The translations under genes were made by a program, and so were the position numbers. DNA of 64,000 nucleotides, taken from NCBI GenBank assembly GCA_021203345.1, contig JAJQBJ010000068.1, positions 9,336 to 73,335 on the forward strand, given 5' to 3'. The notes under the pieces were generated by a model. It did no database searches, was not told the DNA's origin, and saw nothing but the letters and a program-made list of their open reading frames with translations. How positions within the stretch are numbered: position 1 is the first letter of the stretch; each line of letters opens with the position of its first letter. This DNA comes from Oscillospiraceae bacterium. Its GTDB lineage: Bacteria; Bacillota; Clostridia; Oscillospirales; Oscillospiraceae. Below are positions 2,521-34,695 of the stretch, one piece after another.

Positions 2521-2997
2521 TCATTGACCGACTGCTTTGCTTGCAAAGCCCTTGTAACCTTCATCCATTGCCGTTTTAAGCGCAATATCTCCACCTTTCA
2601 GCCACAGACTTGCAAGGTAGAGCATCCCGCACATACAGGCGAACTTGTCATAATAATTTCCATAATTCGCCTCATATATGAATTGATTCTGCTTCGTAAT
2701 ATCCTGTTCAACAAGCGCAGATTTAAGCTTTTCTCTGCTTCGTTCAAACACAGCCAAAAGCTCCTTGCTTTGCCAATCCACCGTGTCAATATCTTTTGCA
2801 TCGTATGAAAGCAGGTGTGCAAACCCCTCATCAAATGTAATGGCATCCAGACTCTCTCGATAATCCGCCCCTTTCAGGACTTCTGTTAAACCTTCTGAAT
2901 GAGAATGAAGCAGCACATGGCACAGTTCGTGCGACAAAAGATTCTGGGTAACCTGTGCAATATCGCAGTTGCCGATATATTTTGTCCAGCAAACCAA
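2521..2997 (-). pseudogene. HExxH zinc-peptidase-like protein, probably N-terminally truncated
   Basis: 158-aa ORF with an HELCH motif near its N-terminus. An in-frame TAG lies 21 nt upstream of the TTG start. The ORF begins 46 nt from the degenerate terminal CRISPR repeat. Confidence 0.35.
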
Positions 2998-3042
2998 GTG
3001 GGGGCGACAAGTAAACTAAAATCAGATGAAAATATATGTACT

Positions 3043-3619
3043 AATTTCAATCCGCGATTCCCGTGAGGGGAGCGACGCGGGAACACCGTCTACATCTTCC
3101 CATCGCAGCTATTTCAATCCACGCTCCCCGTGAGGGGAGCGACGGCGTGGCCATCGACGATTACCGTTTCACGATCATATTTCAATCCACGCTCCCCGCG
3201 AGGGGAGCGACTATTGCGGCGGATGAGGAGGCCGCAAAGCTGTTTGAATTTCAATCCACGCTCCCCGCGAGGGGAGCGACAGTCCACGCCGCTCATATTT
3301 GCGCTCCACATTTTGTATTTCAATCCACGCTCCCCGCGAGGGGAGCGACGCAAGCACCCTTGTATCAGGGGCGGCGACGTTCCAATTTCAATCCACGCTC
3401 CCCGCGAGGGGAGCGACATGATGTTTTGGTATGGTGGAGGGTTTTCCCGGTATTTCAATCCACGCTCCCCGTGAGGGGAGCGACCCAGGTCACGGTAGGC
3501 CACCACCTGCTTTCGGTTATTTCAATCCACGCTCCCCGTGAGGGGAGCGACCAGATTGAGTTGATGATGCGGCAGGTGAAGCTGGGCATTTCAATCCACG
3601 CTCCCCGTGAGGGGAGCGA
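3043..3619 (-). CRISPR. type I-C CRISPR array, 9 repeats / 8 spacers (34-36 nt)
   Basis: The 33-nt repeat read on the minus strand is GTCGCTCCCCTCACGGGGAGCGTGGATTGAAAT, the I-C signature with a 7-bp hairpin and ATTGAAAT tail. Repeats start (plus strand) at 3043, 3110, 3178, 3247, 3316, 3384, 3451, 3518 and 3587. The cas-distal repeat at 3043 has 3 mismatches. Confidence 0.97.
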
Positions 3620-5130: not shown

Positions 5131-5786
5131 GGTTCCTTCAGCTCCCCTCTCAGATACTCTGTTACACTGGGGCTTTTTGCCAGACGTGGCAGGCACAAAT
5201 CCTTCAAGGAACAGGCATTGCACCCCTTTGACGGCTTGCTCCTGGGCGTATATCCCCGCTGGAACAGCTGGTGCATTTCCGCAGCTGATTGTTCCACCAA
5301 AGTCCGCAACTCCGGGGTGAAGGACACCTCCTGCCGCCGCCGGGGCTGCCCGTAAAACAGCGCCCCCGCCGGGATGGTGCAGCACAGCATTTCCTCCAGA
5401 CATATCGCCTGGGCGCAGAGCTGTGCTTCATCGCAGGCGGTGGGCTTTGCCTTGCCCCGCTTGTATTTAACGGGGTAAGGATTCCAAAGCCCCTTGGCCT
5501 CTGCCAGCGGCACGCCCTCCGGTGAGCGCCGGAATTCCACCACGTCGCACTCCCCGGACAGACCCAGCCGGGCCGAGTGAACCCGCATGGCCCGCACTGT
5601 CAGCAAATCTCCCCGAAGGGTGCGTAGTTCTCCGTCGTGGGCGTTCTTGTGCAGTAAATCGCCCTCCACCGTGCGGATGTTTTCCGCCCACTGCTGTTCC
5701 AGATGAATCAATGCCCATTGGCGGCGGCAAAAGACAAAGTGCTGGATGCCGGAGAGGGGGAGGTAGTCGGATTCGTCAAATGCCAT
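5127..5786 (-). CDS. cas4: Cas4 RecB-like exonuclease
   Basis: 219 aa with a C-terminal Cys cluster (CNACSLKDLC) and an N-terminal FVFCRRQW motif. Position matches the I-C operon. Confidence 0.9.
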   Translation of the reverse strand: MAFDESDYLPLSGIQHFVFCRRQWALIHLEQQWAENIRTVEGDLLHKNAHDGELRTLRGDLLTVRAMRVHSARLGLSGECDVVEFRRSPEGVPLAEAKGLWNPYPVKYKRGKAKPTACDEAQLCAQAICLEEMLCCTIPAGALFYGQPRRRQEVSFTPELRTLVEQSAAEMHQLFQRGYTPRSKPSKGCNACSLKDLCLPRLAKSPSVTEYLRGELKEP

Positions 5787-14625: not shown

Positions 14626-17600
14626 ATGGCTCGCAAATTAAAAACCATGGACGGCAATACCGCCGCGGCCACCGTATCCTATGCGTTTACGGAAGTCGCT
14701 GCGATTTATCCCATCACGCCGTCCTCCGTCATGGCGGAGCTGACCGACGACTGGTCGGCCCACGGTCTGAAGAATATCTTCGGACAGACGGTCAAGATCG
14801 CAGAGATGCAGTCCGAGGGCGGCGCTGCCGGCGCAGTACACGGCTCCATCACGGCCGGCGCTCTGACCACCACCTATACGGCATCTCAGGGCCTGCTGCT
14901 GATGATTCCCAATATGTACAAGATTGCAGGCGAGCTGATGCCCGGCGTGATCAACGTATCCGCCCGCGCACTGGCAACCCACGCCCTGTCCATCTTCGGC
15001 GACCACTCCGACGTGATGGCCTGCCGGCAGACCGGCTATGCAATGCTTGCCTCCACCAATCCCCAGGAGGCAATGGATCTGGGCGCAGTGGCGCATCTGT
15101 CCACCATCAAGGGCAGCATCCCCATCATTCACTTCTTTGACGGTTTCCGTACCTCCCATGAGATTCGCAAGGTCGCCGTGTGGGACTATCAGGATCTGGC
15201 TGAAATGGTGGATTGGGACGCCATCGCCAACTTCCGCGCCCGCGCTCTGAACCCGGAGCATCCCGTGCTGCGCGGCTCCTCTCAGAACCCGGATATCTTC
15301 TTCCAGACCCGCGAGGCAGCCAACAAGTTCTATGATGCATTCCCCGATGTGGTGCAGGGCTGCATGGATCAGGTGAACGAGAAGATCGGCACCAACTACA
15401 AGCTGTTCAACTATTACGGCGCACCCGACGCCGAAACCGTTCTGGTGGCCATGGGTTCCGTCTGCGACGCTGCGGAGGAAACCATCGACTATCTGACCGC
15501 CAAGGGGGAGAAGGTCGGTCTGATCAAGGTTCGTCTGTATCGTCCCTTTGCCTCCGCCAAGTTCGTGGAGGCCATTCCCGCCACCTGCAAGAGCCTGGTG
15601 GTGCTGGATCGCTGCAAGGAGCCTGGCGCACCCGGCGAGCCTCTGTATCTGGACGTATGTTCCGCCGTTCGCGGCTCTGCCTTCGCGGATATCAAGGTCT
15701 GCGGCGGCCGTTACGGTCTGGGCTCCAAGGACACCACCCCCGGCGGCATTATTGCGGCGTTCAAGAACGGCCAGCAGGACAAGCCCGTCAATTCCTTCAC
15801 CATCAACATGGTGGACGATGTGACGAATCTGTCTCTGCCCGTGGAGGAGGAGCCTGACGTGGTTCCCGACGGTACGACCTCCTGCAAGTTCTGGGGCCTC
15901 GGCTCCGACGGCACCGTGGGCGCCAACAAGAACTCCATCAAGATCATCGGCGACCACACTGATTTGAAGGTGCAGGCTTACTTCCAGTACGATTCCAAGA
16001 AGTCCGGCGGCCTGACCATCTCCCACCTGCGCTTTGGCCCCCAGGAGATCAAGTCCACCTACTATGTCAAGCAGGCTGACTTTGTGGCCTGCCACAACCC
16101 TGCCTATCTGGAGAAGTATCAGATCGCCCAGGATATCAAGCGGGGCGGCGCATTCCTGATTAACACCGATATGGACGTGGAGGCCTTGGGCAAGGTTCTG
16201 CCCGCCGCCGCAAAGCGCCATATCGCCAACTACAACGTCCATGTGTATACCTGCGACGCCATCAAGCTGGCCCGGGATATCGGCCTGGGCGGACGCACCA
16301 ACATGGTTCTTCAGGCCGCCTTCTTCAAGCTGTCCAACATCATCCCCATCGACGATGCCGTGGCCTATATGAAGAGCGCCATTGAGACAACCTACGGCTC
16401 CAAGGGCCAGAACATTGTGGACATGAACAAGCAGGCTGTGGACGCTGGCCTGAACGCTACCATCGAGCTGGAGATTCCCGCCGACTGGGCGAACGCCGTG
16501 GATGGCCCCGCTCCCTCTGCCGGAACCTCTGACCGGGCCGATGTCCAGACCTATCTGGATACCGTGATGCTGCCCGCTGCCGCTCAGGAGGGCGACGTGC
16601 TGACCACGTCTCAGCTGCTCCCCGGCGCAGACGGCACCATTCCCTCCGGTACTGCCGCTTACGAGAAGCGCGGCACCGCCGTCACTGTTCCCAGCTGGGA
16701 CGCTACCACCTGTGCCCAGTGCAACCAGTGCGCGATGGTCTGCCCCCATGCCGTGATTCGTCCTCTGGCTGTCACGGACGAGGAGATCGCAGCGGCTCCC
16801 GCCGCCCTCAAGACCGTGGACTTCCGCAACAAGAAGTTCAAGGAGAAGGGGCTGAAATACGCCATGATCGTCTCCCCGATGGACTGCTCCGGCTGCGGCT
16901 CCTGCGCCAATGTCTGCCCCACCAACTCCCTGAAGATGCTGCCGCTGGCCTCCCAGATGGAGCAGCAGGAGGTCTTTGACAAGACCGCTTATATCGTCAC
17001 CGAGAAGGATATGGGCCCCATCACCACGATTTCCGCCCAGTTCAAGCAGCCTTTGCTGGAGTTCTCCGGCGCCTGCGGCGGCTGCGGCGAGACGCCCTAT
17101 GCCAAGCTGGTGACCCAGCTGTTCGGCGACCGGATGTATATCGCCAACGCAACGGGCTGCTCCTCTATTTGGGGCTGCTCCGCACCCTCCACGCCCTACA
17201 CGGTCAACCAGAAGGGACAGGGCCCCGCTTGGGAGAACTCCCTGTTCGAGGACGCCGCCGAGTTCGGCTACGGCATGAATCTGGCCGTGACCCAGCGCCG
17301 GGCCAAGCTGGTGGACACCGTGAAGGAGCTGGCTGCGCTGCCCTTCGCAGACGAGGACGTTGTGGCCGCCTGCAACGCATGGCTGGAGAGCAAGGATAAT
17401 CCTGCGGCGTCCCGCGCTGCCGGGGACAAGCTGGTGGCTGTGATCGAGGACTTCTTCGCCCATCAGGATCAGACCGGCACGCCCTTCGAGGCACAGTGGC
17501 TTGCTAACGGCAAGAAGTGCGGCTGTCCCGCCTGCACCGCCGCCCGCTCCATCCTGGAGCAGAAGGATCTGCTGACCAAGAAGTCCATCTGGATCTTCGG

Positions 17601-18231
17601 CGGCGACGGATTCGCCTATGACATCGGTTACGGCGGTCTGGATCACGTTCTGGCCTCCGGCGAGAATGTGAATGTGTTCATCTTCGATACCGAGGTGTAC
17701 TCCAACACCGGCGGACAGTCCTCCAAGTCCACGCCCACCGGCGCTGTGGCCCAGTTTGCCGCTGCCGGTAAGGCCGTGAAGAAGAAGGATATGGCCTCCA
17801 TCTTCATGCAGTATGGCTATGTCTATGTGGCTCAGGTCGCAATGGGCGCCAACTACAACCAGACCCTCAAGGCCATTCAGGAGGCCGAGGCCTATGACGG
17901 CCCCTCCATCATCATCGGCTACGCCCCCTGCATCAACCATGGTATCAAGAAGAAGGGTGGCATGGCCAACGCCATGCAGGAGATGAAGGACGCTGTGGCC
18001 GCTGGTTACTGGCACCTGTTCCGCTATGATCCCCGTCTGGCCGACCAGGGGAAGAACCCCTTCCAGATGGATTCCAAGGCGCCGACTGCCGACTACCTCC
18101 AGTTCATTCAGGGCGAGACTCGTTACGCCTCCCTGAAGATCGCCTTCCCCGAGCGCGCCGAGACGCTGTTCGCCAAGGCCGAGGCCGATGCCAAGCAGAA
18201 GTACGAGAAGCTGGCCAACAGAGCAAAATAA
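14626..18231 (+). CDS. nifJ: pyruvate:ferredoxin (flavodoxin) oxidoreductase
   Basis: 1201 aa. N-terminus MDGNTAAATVSYAFTEVAAIYPITPSS, two ferredoxin motifs (CAQCNQCAMVCP, CSGCGSCANVCP) and a GGDG TPP loop. Confidence 0.95.
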   Translation: MARKLKTMDGNTAAATVSYAFTEVAAIYPITPSSVMAELTDDWSAHGLKNIFGQTVKIAEMQSEGGAAGAVHGSITAGALTTTYTASQGLLLMIPNMYKIAGELMPGVINVSARALATHALSIFGDHSDVMACRQTGYAMLASTNPQEAMDLGAVAHLSTIKGSIPIIHFFDGFRTSHEIRKVAVWDYQDLAEMVDWDAIANFRARALNPEHPVLRGSSQNPDIFFQTREAANKFYDAFPDVVQGCMDQVNEKIGTNYKLFNYYGAPDAETVLVAMGSVCDAAEETIDYLTAKGEKVGLIKVRLYRPFASAKFVEAIPATCKSLVVLDRCKEPGAPGEPLYLDVCSAVRGSAFADIKVCGGRYGLGSKDTTPGGIIAAFKNGQQDKPVNSFTINMVDDVTNLSLPVEEEPDVVPDGTTSCKFWGLGSDGTVGANKNSIKIIGDHTDLKVQAYFQYDSKKSGGLTISHLRFGPQEIKSTYYVKQADFVACHNPAYLEKYQIAQDIKRGGAFLINTDMDVEALGKVLPAAAKRHIANYNVHVYTCDAIKLARDIGLGGRTNMVLQAAFFKLSNIIPIDDAVAYMKSAIETTYGSKGQNIVDMNKQAVDAGLNATIELEIPADWANAVDGPAPSAGTSDRADVQTYLDTVMLPAAAQEGDVLTTSQLLPGADGTIPSGTAAYEKRGTAVTVPSWDATTCAQCNQCAMVCPHAVIRPLAVTDEEIAAAPAALKTVDFRNKKFKEKGLKYAMIVSPMDCSGCGSCANVCPTNSLKMLPLASQMEQQEVFDKTAYIVTEKDMGPITTISAQFKQPLLEFSGACGGCGETPYAKLVTQLFGDRMYIANATGCSSIWGCSAPSTPYTVNQKGQGPAWENSLFEDAAEFGYGMNLAVTQRRAKLVDTVKELAALPFADEDVVAACNAWLESKDNPAASRAAGDKLVAVIEDFFAHQDQTGTPFEAQWLANGKKCGCPACTAARSILEQKDLLTKKSIWIFGGDGFAYDIGYGGLDHVLASGENVNVFIFDTEVYSNTGGQSSKSTPTGAVAQFAAAGKAVKKKDMASIFMQYGYVYVAQVAMGANYNQTLKAIQEAEAYDGPSIIIGYAPCINHGIKKKGGMANAMQEMKDAVAAGYWHLFRYDPRLADQGKNPFQMDSKAPTADYLQFIQGETRYASLKIAFPERAETLFAKAEADAKQKYEKLANRAK

Positions 18232-18264: not shown

Positions 18265-18292
18265 GAGCCGCCCGTGGAAACACGGGCGGCTC
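18265..18292 (+). terminator. hairpin H1 (first copy of the nifJ terminator stem-loop, now lacking its T-tract)
   Basis: GAGCCGCCCGTG-GAAA-CACGGGCGGCTC. It is followed directly by the end of repeat element copy A rather than by a T-run. Confidence 0.6.
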
Positions 18293-18597
18293 AGTCTGTC
18301 AAAAAAGTCTATCTGAAAAAAGAAAAACAGACGAAAAGTTCAGGAAGCCCTCCGCAGGAGTTTTGTTGCGAAGCAACAAAATAAAGTGAAATACGTCTTT
18401 TTAGCCGGGCGTGTACCGGCAAAAAGACACAGGGAGGCGACACTGTTGCATAAGAAAAGACACCGCCCGCAGGCGGTGTGCAATGTGCAACCACGCGAAG
18501 CGCGGCTCTTAGCGCATTGCAGTGCGGAGAGGAGCCGCATATATTCGACCCAAATGCACGCATTTGGGTCGAGAGCCTGTCGTTTTACGACAGGCTC
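18292..18597 (-). repeat. structured repeat element, copy A (306 bp, minus orientation)
   Basis: About 90% identical over shared segments to 34419-34661 in reverse complement, with an extra ~60-nt internal segment. Bounded by ...GAGCCTGTC and GACAGACTG ends. Confidence 0.8.
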
Positions 18598-18599
18598 AA

Positions 18600-18630
18600 C
18601 CGCCCGTGGAAACACGGGCGGCTTTTGTTG
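18600..18630 (+). terminator. hairpin H2 with T-tract (second copy; functional nifJ terminator)
   Basis: CCGCCCGTG-GAAA-CACGGGCGG followed by CTTTTGTTG. The 24 nt CCGCCCGTGGAAACACGGGCGGCT is identical to 18268-18291. Confidence 0.65.
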
Positions 18631-18640
18631 CGAATGAATT

Positions 18641-18668
18641 GAGCCGCCTGTGAAAACACAGGCGGCTC
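18641..18668 (-). terminator. hairpin H3 downstream of purD
   Basis: GAGCCGCCTGTG-AAAA-CACAGGCGGCTC. A paralogue of H1 with a compensatory C:G to T:A change. The T-tract on the minus strand is weak. Confidence 0.45.
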
Positions 18669-18677
18669 GTAAATTGC

Positions 18678-19931
18678 TTAAACTCTGCCGATATCGGGGC
18701 GATAGTGCATATCCTTCCAGGAGATCGGCTTGGCCGACAGATAAGCCTGGTCGATGGCCTCCTCCAGCGTGGGGGCGACGGCGGTAACGCCCAGCACCCG
18801 GCCACCGTTGTTGACGAACTGACCCTGTTCGTTCCGCTTCGTACCGGCGTGGAACACCACGGCTTCCTCCACCTGATCCAGACCGGTGATGGGATAGCCC
18901 TTTTGATATTGGACGGGATATCCGCCCGAGGCCAGCACCAGACAGCAGGCGGCGGCATCCTTCCACTTGATTTCCACCTGGTCCAGGGTTCCGTCAATGC
19001 AAGCATTGAAGATTTGGAACAGATCCGAGTCCAGCAGGGACAGGACGGGCTGTGTCTCCGGGTCGCCAAAGCGGGCGTTGTACTCCACCACCTTCGGGCC
19101 GTCTGCGGTCAGCATCAGACCGAAATACAGCACGCCCTTGAAGGTACGGCCCTCGGCGTTCAGCGCGTCAATGGTGGGCTGGAAAATCTCCTTCATACAG
19201 CGCTCCGCGATCTCCGGGGTATAGTTGGGGGAGGGGGCAATCGCACCCATGCCGCCGGTGTTCGGCCCCTGGTTGCCGTCGTAGGCCCGCTTGTGGTCCT
19301 GGGAGGACACCATGGGCTTGACGGTTTTTCCGTCCGTAAAGGCCAACACAGAGACTTCGGGGCCGGTCATGCACTCCTCGATGACTACGGTGCCACCGGC
19401 GGAGCCGAACTTGCCGCCAACCATCATGTCCTTCAGGGCGGACAGAGCCTCATCCACCGTGGCGGCTACGGTAACGCCCTTACCCAGAGCCAGACCGTCC
19501 GCCTTGACGACAATGGGCGCACCCTGCTCCTGAATGTAAGCGGCAGCGGCATCATAGTCGGTAAAGGTGGCGTATTTGGCGGTGGGGATATGGTATTTCT
19601 TCATCAGCTCCTTAGAGAAGGCCTTGGAGGCCTCGATGATGGCGGCGTTCTTGTGGGGGCCAAAGGCCCGGATACCGGCTTCTTCCAGCGCATCCACCAT
19701 GCCTAAGGCCAGCGGGTCGTCCGGCGCAACCATGACGAAATCCATTTCATTTTCCTTGGCGCACTGCACCATGCCCGCCACATCCGTGGCGGCAACCGGC
19801 AGACAGGTGGCGATTTGGGCGATTCCCGCATTGCCAGGGGCACAGTACAATTCCGTCACCTGGGGGGATTGGGCCAGCTTCCAGCAGATCGCGTGTTCCC
19901 GTCCGCCGCCGCCGACAACTAAAACTTTCAT
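18678..19931 (-). CDS. purD: phosphoribosylamine-glycine ligase
   Basis: 417 aa with N-terminus MKVLVVGGGGREHAICWKL and an ATP-grasp layout. Confidence 0.95.
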   Translation of the reverse strand: MKVLVVGGGGREHAICWKLAQSPQVTELYCAPGNAGIAQIATCLPVAATDVAGMVQCAKENEMDFVMVAPDDPLALGMVDALEEAGIRAFGPHKNAAIIEASKAFSKELMKKYHIPTAKYATFTDYDAAAAYIQEQGAPIVVKADGLALGKGVTVAATVDEALSALKDMMVGGKFGSAGGTVVIEECMTGPEVSVLAFTDGKTVKPMVSSQDHKRAYDGNQGPNTGGMGAIAPSPNYTPEIAERCMKEIFQPTIDALNAEGRTFKGVLYFGLMLTADGPKVVEYNARFGDPETQPVLSLLDSDLFQIFNACIDGTLDQVEIKWKDAAACCLVLASGGYPVQYQKGYPITGLDQVEEAVVFHAGTKRNEQGQFVNNGGRVLGVTAVAPTLEEAIDQAYLSAKPISWKDMHYRPDIGRV

Positions 19932-34366: not shown

Positions 34367-34390
34367 ACCGGATAGAATAAGTTTATAGAG

Positions 34391-34418
34391 AATGGCCCCT
34401 ACGCTGGCAGGGGCCATT
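34391..34418 (+). repeat. left copy of the duplicated ptb terminator hairpin
   Basis: AATGGCCCCTACGCTGGCAGGGGCCATT, 26/28 identical to 34662-34689. No T-tract follows. Confidence 0.7.
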
Positions 34419-34661
34419 GAGCCTGTCATAAAACGACAGGCTCTCGAACCAAATGCTTACATTTGGTTCGAATATGCGGCTCCTCTCTGCATTCGCTTCG
34501 CTCGCACAGTCGTCGCCTCCCTGTGTCTTTTTGCCGGTACACGCCCGGCTAAAAAGACGTATTTCACTTTATTTTGTTGCTTTGCAACAAAACTCCTGCG
34601 GAGGGCTTCCTGAACCTTTCGTCTGGTTTCCTTTTCGTAGATAGACTTTTTTGACAGACTG
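34419..34661 (+). repeat. structured repeat element, copy B (243 bp, plus orientation)
   Basis: Homologous to the reverse complement of 18292-18597. Same GAGCCTGTC...GACAGACTG ends. Contains at least 4 hairpins, one with a compensatory pair change between copies. Confidence 0.8.
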
Positions 34662-34695
34662 AATGGCCCCTGCGTTGGCAGGGGCCATTTTTGCG
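34662..34695 (+). terminator. right copy of the ptb terminator hairpin with T-tract
   Basis: AATGGCCCCTGC-GTTG-GCAGGGGCCATT followed by TTTGCG. Confidence 0.65.

Follow-up and report, generated by a model that had tools for sequence, protein, structure and literature searches.

Genomic context of the element behind nifJ

The window, i.e., the whole stretch of 64,000 nucleotides that was analysed, belongs to contig JAJQBJ010000068.1 of an Oscillospiraceae genome. A short non-coding element lies in it between a nifJ-like ORF and the convergent gene purD (locus A), and a second copy lies further along in inverted orientation. The features referred to below are as follows.

14626 to 18231, plus strand: nifJ-like ORF of 1201 aa, taken as context from the ORF list and named as in an earlier note on this DNA; its terminator is the insertion target
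18265 to 18292, plus strand: H1, left copy of the terminator stem-loop (GAGCCGCCCGTGGAAACACGGGCGGCTC), without a T-tract; the duplicated 24 nt are 18268 to 18291
18292 to 18597, plus strand: copy A of the element, 306 bp, non-coding, starting with CAGTCTGTC and ending with CGACAGGCTC
18292 to 18307, plus strand: left terminal inverted repeat CAGTCTGTCAAAAAAG, which holds an outward-facing TTGACA on the minus strand
18442 to 18520, plus strand: optional internal module made of palindromes, standing in place of 18 nt of the common ~243-bp form
18546 to 18571, plus strand: subterminal palindrome H5 (CGACCCAAATGC-ACGC...), which differs among copies and is nearly always perfectly paired
18573 to 18597, plus strand: right end GAGCCTGTCG-TTTTA-CGACAGGCTC, a 25-nt palindrome of two facing inverted-repeat cores
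18600 to 18629, plus strand: H2, second copy of the 24-nt stem-loop (18600 to 18623) with its T-tract, from the terminator scan
18641 to 18668, no strand assigned: downstream hairpin H3 (GAGCCGCCTGTGAAAACACAGGCGGCTC), 17 nt after H2 and beside purD
18678 to 19931, minus strand: purD, convergent, with GARS domains by Pfam families (context)
34419 to 34661, minus strand: copy B of the element, 243 bp, inverted relative to copy A

The 3′ end of nifJ aligns at 84-89% with the congeners G001 and G002. Behind it H1 runs directly into CAGTCTGTC with no T-tract, and the 24 nt CCGCCCGTGGAAACACGGGCGGCT at 18268-18291 are seen again at 18600-18623, where TTTTGTT follows (direct-repeat alignment score of H1 and H2, 24). 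The earlier note had described a 306-bp element between two copies of the 24-nt nifJ hairpin, and this arrangement can be read directly in the sequence. A terminator scan found H2 to be the only intrinsic-terminator-like site on the plus strand at locus A. Since H1 is without a U-tract, the upstream transcript would be expected to run through the element to H2, and a longer 3′ UTR is a probable effect of the element on genes like nifJ. The downstream hairpin H3 differs from H1 and H2 at three positions, which amount to one paired stem change and one loop base; it could be the terminator of purD itself or the relic of an earlier insertion-and-loss cycle.

The homology of copy A to the inverted copy B, also claimed in the earlier note, holds with ~95% identity over positions 1-153 and ~90% over the last 77. 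Copy B has the hairpin of another terminator, that of ptb, on each side, at 34390-34418 and 34662-34689 (2 mismatches). Copy A is longer than copy B and most other copies by the ~60 nt which the internal module adds. The same module is present at locus L113, where both of its arms have changed together.

Copy number and the hairpin duplication footprint

We counted 15 copies of the element in the source genome (2.15 Mb, 160 contigs). An exact-pattern scan of one genome per species added at least 110 loci elsewhere, a lower bound, in MAGs of Candidatus Onthomonas and other Clostridia. To define the footprint, both ends were anchored by motif and the 50-nt flanks of 41 complete copies from the source and other genomes were compared, with 2000 shuffled flank pairs as the control (median score 6, 99th percentile 10, maximum 13). 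A locus-specific direct repeat scoring above the control 99th percentile was present in 32 of the 41 copies, and the median flank-to-flank score was 23 against the control maximum of 13. The earlier proposal of a mobile insertion that duplicated the whole stem-loop is thus borne out across loci, and at locus A also by the T-tract, which is absent at H1 and present at H2.

The direct repeats are 11-38 bp long (median 28, ~71% G+C), with identical members in 18 of the 32 pairs. Each repeat begins at the base after ...GGCTC, stops 0-1 nt before AGNYTGTC, and ends within 0-1 nt of the feet of the best (GC-rich) palindrome. Because the repeat ends coincide with the palindrome feet, the duplicated unit is the stem-loop itself, a different one at each locus. 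Orientation relative to the T-tract was one way in nine cases, the other way in six, and ambiguous in 15 with two-sided terminators; such a lack of orientation bias is as expected for a symmetric DNA target. A clear duplication is absent in nine of the 41 copies, and on a by-eye reading of the flanks those at C90, C13, and C61 look like collapsed palindromes or internal/microhomology deletions.

A candidate for a 1.2-kb longer version of the element (L114, 5800-7150, minus strand) was rejected, as the copy there is split by an unrelated ~1-kb element encoding a zinc-ribbon transposase. The inserted element has the direct repeat AAAATTAAATATG on its flanks, the outer copy keeps its duplicated 29-nt hairpin, and from the sequence our guess is that the interrupting element is IS1595-like. 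In a related MAG (L144), an M-box (magnesium) riboswitch at 5572-5733 lies ~200 nt from a copy of the element (97 bits, gathering cut-off 44).

Terminal repeats and a probable partner in the IS1182 family

The element has the ends CAGNCTGTCAAAAAAG and GAGCCTGTCGTAAAAC, which agree with the inverted repeats of insertion sequences of the IS1182 family. The terminal inverted repeats reported in the earlier note are real, but they extend over ~16 bp and not 11 bp. The left repeat CAGTCTGTCAAAAAAG matches the IS ends CAGTCTGTCAAAGAAC and CAGCTTGTCAAAAAAC of the same genome and CAGCCTGTCAAAAAAG of the MAG locus L168. The right repeat is the outer core of the right-end palindrome; read as GAGCCTGTCGTAAAAC, it agrees with the IS repeat variant CAGCCTGTCGAAAAAC at 14 of 16 positions. 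The right end GAGCCTGTCGTAAAAC and the left end CAGTCTGTCAAAAAAG were also compared with the IS end CAGCCTGTCGAAAAA, and the ends matched. The earlier note had foreseen that a known IS family might account for the ends and so speak against its reading; the IS1182 inverted repeats explain the element rather than refute it.

The outward TTGACA noted before is present as a part of the left repeat. It stands without a partner -10, and a promoter scan of copy A found no promoter. Neither the aligned copies nor the ORF list contains a conserved ORF, in agreement with the earlier note, which had based this on the ~60-nt indel between copies A and B; here it follows from 2- and 4-nt indels within subfamilies. 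A small ORF behind a conserved GGGAGG-N8-GTG was considered and rejected, as these indels break its frame.

The partner was found by a whole-genome search with Pfam DDE_Tnp_1_6, which returned, besides four decayed copies in the source genome, a single intact gene from a MAG in which the element is also present (L168). The decayed copies (C154:36-1539, C156:1868-3070, C144:2215-end, and C160:11631-end; ends CAGTCTGTCAAAGAAC and CAGCTTGTCAAAAAAC) each adjoin a GC-rich hairpin and have broken or shortened frames; no intact transposase was found in the source assembly, which is 98.6% complete. At L168 the IS follows immediately upon the upstream gene's terminator hairpin, with CAGCCTGTCAAAAAAG as its start and ...CTTTGACAAGCTG as its end. 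Its intact transposase of 476 aa is a full-length equivalog match for the IS1182 family (NCBIfam model NF033551, 381 bits against a cut-off of 270, residues 14-450 of 476) and also matches Pfam DUF772, DDE_Tnp_1, and DDE_Tnp_1_6. Only the terminal ~16-20 nt are common to the element and the IS, and the interior of the element is unrelated to the IS.

In the loci and genomes examined, no longer form with a coding region between two long left-type repeats turned up; the search returned only a second small element at L065 and the mini-palindromes of G017. The former (2982-3195) is a different 214-bp MITE whose two ends bear the long repeat (CAGACTGTCAAAAAAG ... CTTTTTTGACAGCCT) and whose interior is unrelated; it too lies between duplicated hairpins (GAGCGTGTCGACAAAGTCGACACGCTC). 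The latter, from another genus of the same family, are 41-54 bp long and consist of two facing CAGTCTGTCAAAAAAG... repeats (locus L032; C60:4531-4584, C9:17677-17717, and C56:6587-6627); the one on C60 directly follows a terminator hairpin and T-run, without duplication.

Hairpins at the ends of full-length IS relatives

Transposase relatives are encoded at 80 metagenome loci. We scored a set of 51 full-length IS, i.e., 50 metagenome loci with both ends and flanks plus an IS from an Enterococcus faecium plasmid. A palindrome adjoins the left end in 49/51 and the right end in 48/51. The same hairpin of 20-45 bp stands on both sides in 14 of the 51, and these flank pairs are direct duplications, since their loops read alike in direct orientation. 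The full-length IS thus leave the same footprint as the small element.

The two ends bear different hairpins in the other 37/51 contigs (from the metagenome loci L173-L252). We suspect these to be repeat-induced chimeric short-read contigs or products of recombination between copies, because L200 and L201 have a common left flank and different right flanks, and because a 1.5-kb repeat exceeds short-read inserts. For one case the doubt about assembly is removed, since NZ_LR134109.1 is the finished record of the E. faecium plasmid and its annotated IS1182-family IS, whose protein is 44.5% identical to that of L168, has ATAGAGCTTTTCAGCTCTAT on both flanks.

Of 62 IS copies, 52 have a subterminal palindrome next to one inverted repeat and 51 next to the other, the figure for internal control windows being 0%; H5 of the small element resembles these palindromes. 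In the first 70 nt of several IS copies (e.g., L175, L181, and L182), the left subterminal palindrome has TATAAT in its loop, and the GGGGG just before the ATG of the IS falls within its 3′ arm. The ribosome-binding site of read-through transcripts could be masked in this way.

State of the target before insertion

The duplicated hairpins might be older than the insertion, i.e., tandem hairpins pre-existed or arose by slippage and the element entered between them without duplicating anything. The third related hairpin 17 nt downstream at locus A and the many full-length IS contigs with unlike hairpins on their two sides would suit such an origin. Against it, the same hairpin stands on both sides at 32/41 independent loci (18 pairs being 100% identical), and the repeat always starts at the last base of the element and ends 0-1 nt before its first. 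The orthologous terminators of relatives bear on this directly. Those of nifJ and of ptb in G001 and G002 are single hairpins, and at the C136 site G046, G052, and G001 likewise have a single hairpin for either flank; the twin hairpins which the earlier note would have counted against a duplication were therefore not seen in these relatives. The single orthologous hairpins together with the 32 locus-specific duplications rule out pre-existing twin hairpins as a general explanation, and we consider this origin very improbable.

A strict empty site (the same flanks with one hairpin and no element) was not found. When joined flanks were compared with seven related genomes, all matches lay in coding sequence (70-88% identity) and none crossed a junction, as these relatives are too diverged for an empty-site comparison. 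Exact-protein look-ups with purD and ptb returned one other assembly of this organism (SRR15221335), in which the site is filled or the sequence breaks inside the element.

DNA palindromes or a folded RNA

The element is a chain of local hairpins, and its two strands do not differ in how well they fold (z about -11 for each). In the four best-defined internal stems of all copies there are ~1075 Watson-Crick pairs, 5 G:T, and 3 A:C; of the other 30 mismatches, 28 fall in internal stem H3 (distinct from the downstream hairpin of that name) and are read as one constant bulge. In H5, 35 unique variants give 352 Watson-Crick and 2 non-Watson-Crick pairs of 354. In RNA helices, evolution normally proceeds by way of G:U. 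Since G:T is nearly absent and both strands fold alike, the structure is better read as DNA hairpins, and perfect palindromy on two strands fits these better than a folded RNA. The earlier description of a structured element is accordingly retained as to structure, which consists of near-perfect palindromes of the DNA type; evidence for a folded RNA was not found.

This bears on the possibility that the conserved core is a functional structured RNA (e.g., a 3′-UTR-borne sRNA) delivered behind strongly expressed genes and ended at H2, which would be compatible with a mobile origin. In the central core, stretches such as AGCCCTCCGCAGGAGTTTTGTTGC are invariant in 22 aligned copies from the same genome and several MAGs, and the core is better conserved across species than the terminal repeats, which reading the element as a MITE does not explain. 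A functional RNA would also agree with stem pairing kept through changes on both sides, with the very stable fold (z = -11), and with the T-tract being absent at H1 and present at H2, since the loss of the U-tract at H1 would allow co-transcription with the upstream gene. However, the opposite strand folds equally well, G:U makes up only 5 of ~1100 pairs without a trace of the wobble intermediates by which RNA helices typically evolve, and copies lie in both orientations to the terminator, so that half would be antisense. Nor does the element have a promoter of its own or a relevant match in Rfam, where the earlier note had suggested looking for a known RNA: the Rfam 15 scan of copy A (E ≤ 1) gave nothing relevant, group II introns and HEARO/omega RNA included, and neither did the scan of four other loci (E ≤ 0.01). 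An RNA function thus appears unlikely.

As for the upkeep of the palindromes, it could be due to transposition-level selection for a cis-acting structure or to template-switch correction of quasi-palindromes. At C136:54580-54826 (G000, L015), the loop is the main difference between the two 33-nt flanking hairpins; that of the right copy fits the left loop better as a reverse complement (1 mismatch) than in direct reading (3). Loop inversion of this kind is typical of template switching within palindromes, and the inverted loop points toward template-switch correction.

Proposed origin and mechanism

In our reading, the element is a non-autonomous MITE with IS1182-family ends, moved in trans by the DDE transposase of that family and duplicating the whole target hairpin, to which we give a probability of about 0.8. 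It has ends that match the IS, it is small, multicopy, and devoid of a transposase gene, and its target and footprint are those of the full-length IS. The target would be picked by DNA shape and not by sequence, as a GC-rich palindrome, typically an intrinsic terminator, which is probably extruded as a cruciform. The two 3′-OH ends of the element would each be linked to a different strand, one at either 5′ foot of the stem, and gap repair of the two single-stranded stem-loops would then copy the entire hairpin onto both sides. Joining at the stem feet with gap repair would make the target-site duplication as long as the hairpin (11-38 bp), and the same joining would account for the variable duplication length, its coincidence with the stem boundaries, and the absence of a target consensus and of an orientation bias. 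The earlier note had placed the insertion at the hairpin/T-tract junction; an insertion it is, and staggered joining at the two palindrome feet describes it better. The palindromes inside the element, especially that beside the right end, most probably act in cis as DNA hairpins, with a role like that of the subterminal palindromes next to both inverted repeats of the IS. Going one step further, the transposase of this IS1182-family clade may be a structure-specific, junction-recognising integrase that also reads the palindromes of MITE and IS ends as cis-acting DNA hairpins, a suggestion which we regard as evenly poised between belief and doubt. Such an enzyme would give a mobile element a sequence-independent route to safe sites behind genes.

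The MITE reading would account for duplications of 24-38 bp, which are far longer than normally expected of a DDE transposase. The dozens of natural MITE and full-length IS junctions at which the duplication equals the stem-loop are direct comparative support for cruciform-targeted strand transfer, and the ends with the subterminal palindrome offer a ready substrate design for testing strand transfer. For annotation, this is a repeat family of gut Oscillospirales-type Clostridia which breaks assemblies and creates twin terminators.

Comparison with known systems

Hairpins also guide other kinds of mobile DNA. IS1397 and ISKpn1 home to REP loops, class C group II introns insert just after terminators, and members of IS1111/IS110 are hairpin-homing as well. 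The MITE has in common with them a preference for intergenic palindromes or terminators as safe landing sites; they differ in enzymes and chemistry, and we know of none among them that duplicates an entire hairpin. IS200/IS605 PATEs and REP/RAYT elements have no terminal inverted repeats, make no duplication, and insert 3′ of a fixed tetra- or pentanucleotide, whereas inverted repeats and duplications are present here and the flanks have no common sequence. An origin from a single-strand or hairpin-dependent system (IS200/IS605 PATE, REP/RAYT, IS91-like, IS110 bridge-RNA, or a group IIC intron fragment) could be imagined from the hairpin at one end of the element, from its position always just 3′ of a hairpin, and from its many palindromes. 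We find it hardly credible, as a DDE-type IS1182-family element has identical terminal inverted repeats, target duplications are made, unlike in those systems, the targets have no common sequence and hence no guide-type specificity, and Rfam shows no intron or omega-RNA/HEARO match.

Classical MITEs (e.g., Correia/NEMIS, ERIC, and BrickBuilt) are likewise small, non-coding, multicopy, intergenic, and rich in stem-loops, and have terminal inverted repeats in common with resident IS (PMC4596501, PMC3184786). They differ from the present MITE in their short, fixed duplications of 2-9 bp, in place of which a whole palindrome of variable length is duplicated here, and the interior here is unrelated to the parent IS.

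The ISfinder table for the IS1182 family gives direct repeats of 0-60 bp, a range into which hairpin-length duplications would fit. Captured family members such as ISPse1 make 4-bp duplications (PMC3281130), and Siguier et al., as quoted in two later papers, state that some members target palindromes (PMC4923244, PMC5678879). In our literature search, we found no paper documenting hairpin-length duplications or a MITE of this family. Among the closest systems are IS1272 and TnSha1 of staphylococci, which belong to the IS1182 family; IS1272, the member studied best, targets terminator hairpins (PMC4923244). They have the same transposase family and short terminal inverted repeats, and they too enter terminator-like hairpins that are chosen by structure, in both orientations and without a consensus in sequence (PMC4923244, PMC5678879). 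IS1272 uses the other feet for joining, and the hairpin is lost, a 'stem-loop replacing' without duplication (PMC4923244, PMC5678879). Thus, it removes part or all of the stem-loop, whereas the MITE and its full-length relatives duplicate all of it; an IS1272-type deletion without target-site duplication does not describe the MITE copies, 32/41 of which have the hairpin duplicated. The MITE is also unlike IS1272 in being a non-coding derivative of 243-306 bp. Duplication of a whole stem-loop was drawn by Wan et al. as a possible pathway b of cruciform-targeted joining that was unobserved for IS1272 (PMC5678879). In essence, hairpin targeting by the IS1182 family is already published, and whole-hairpin duplication is found in the literature searched only as a hypothesis. 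The footprint described here is tied to an IS family for which the only documented form of hairpin targeting so far is hairpin deletion (IS1272) and, if the transposase does act as a structure-specific integrase, would constitute the first natural data set for the hypothetical pathway b.
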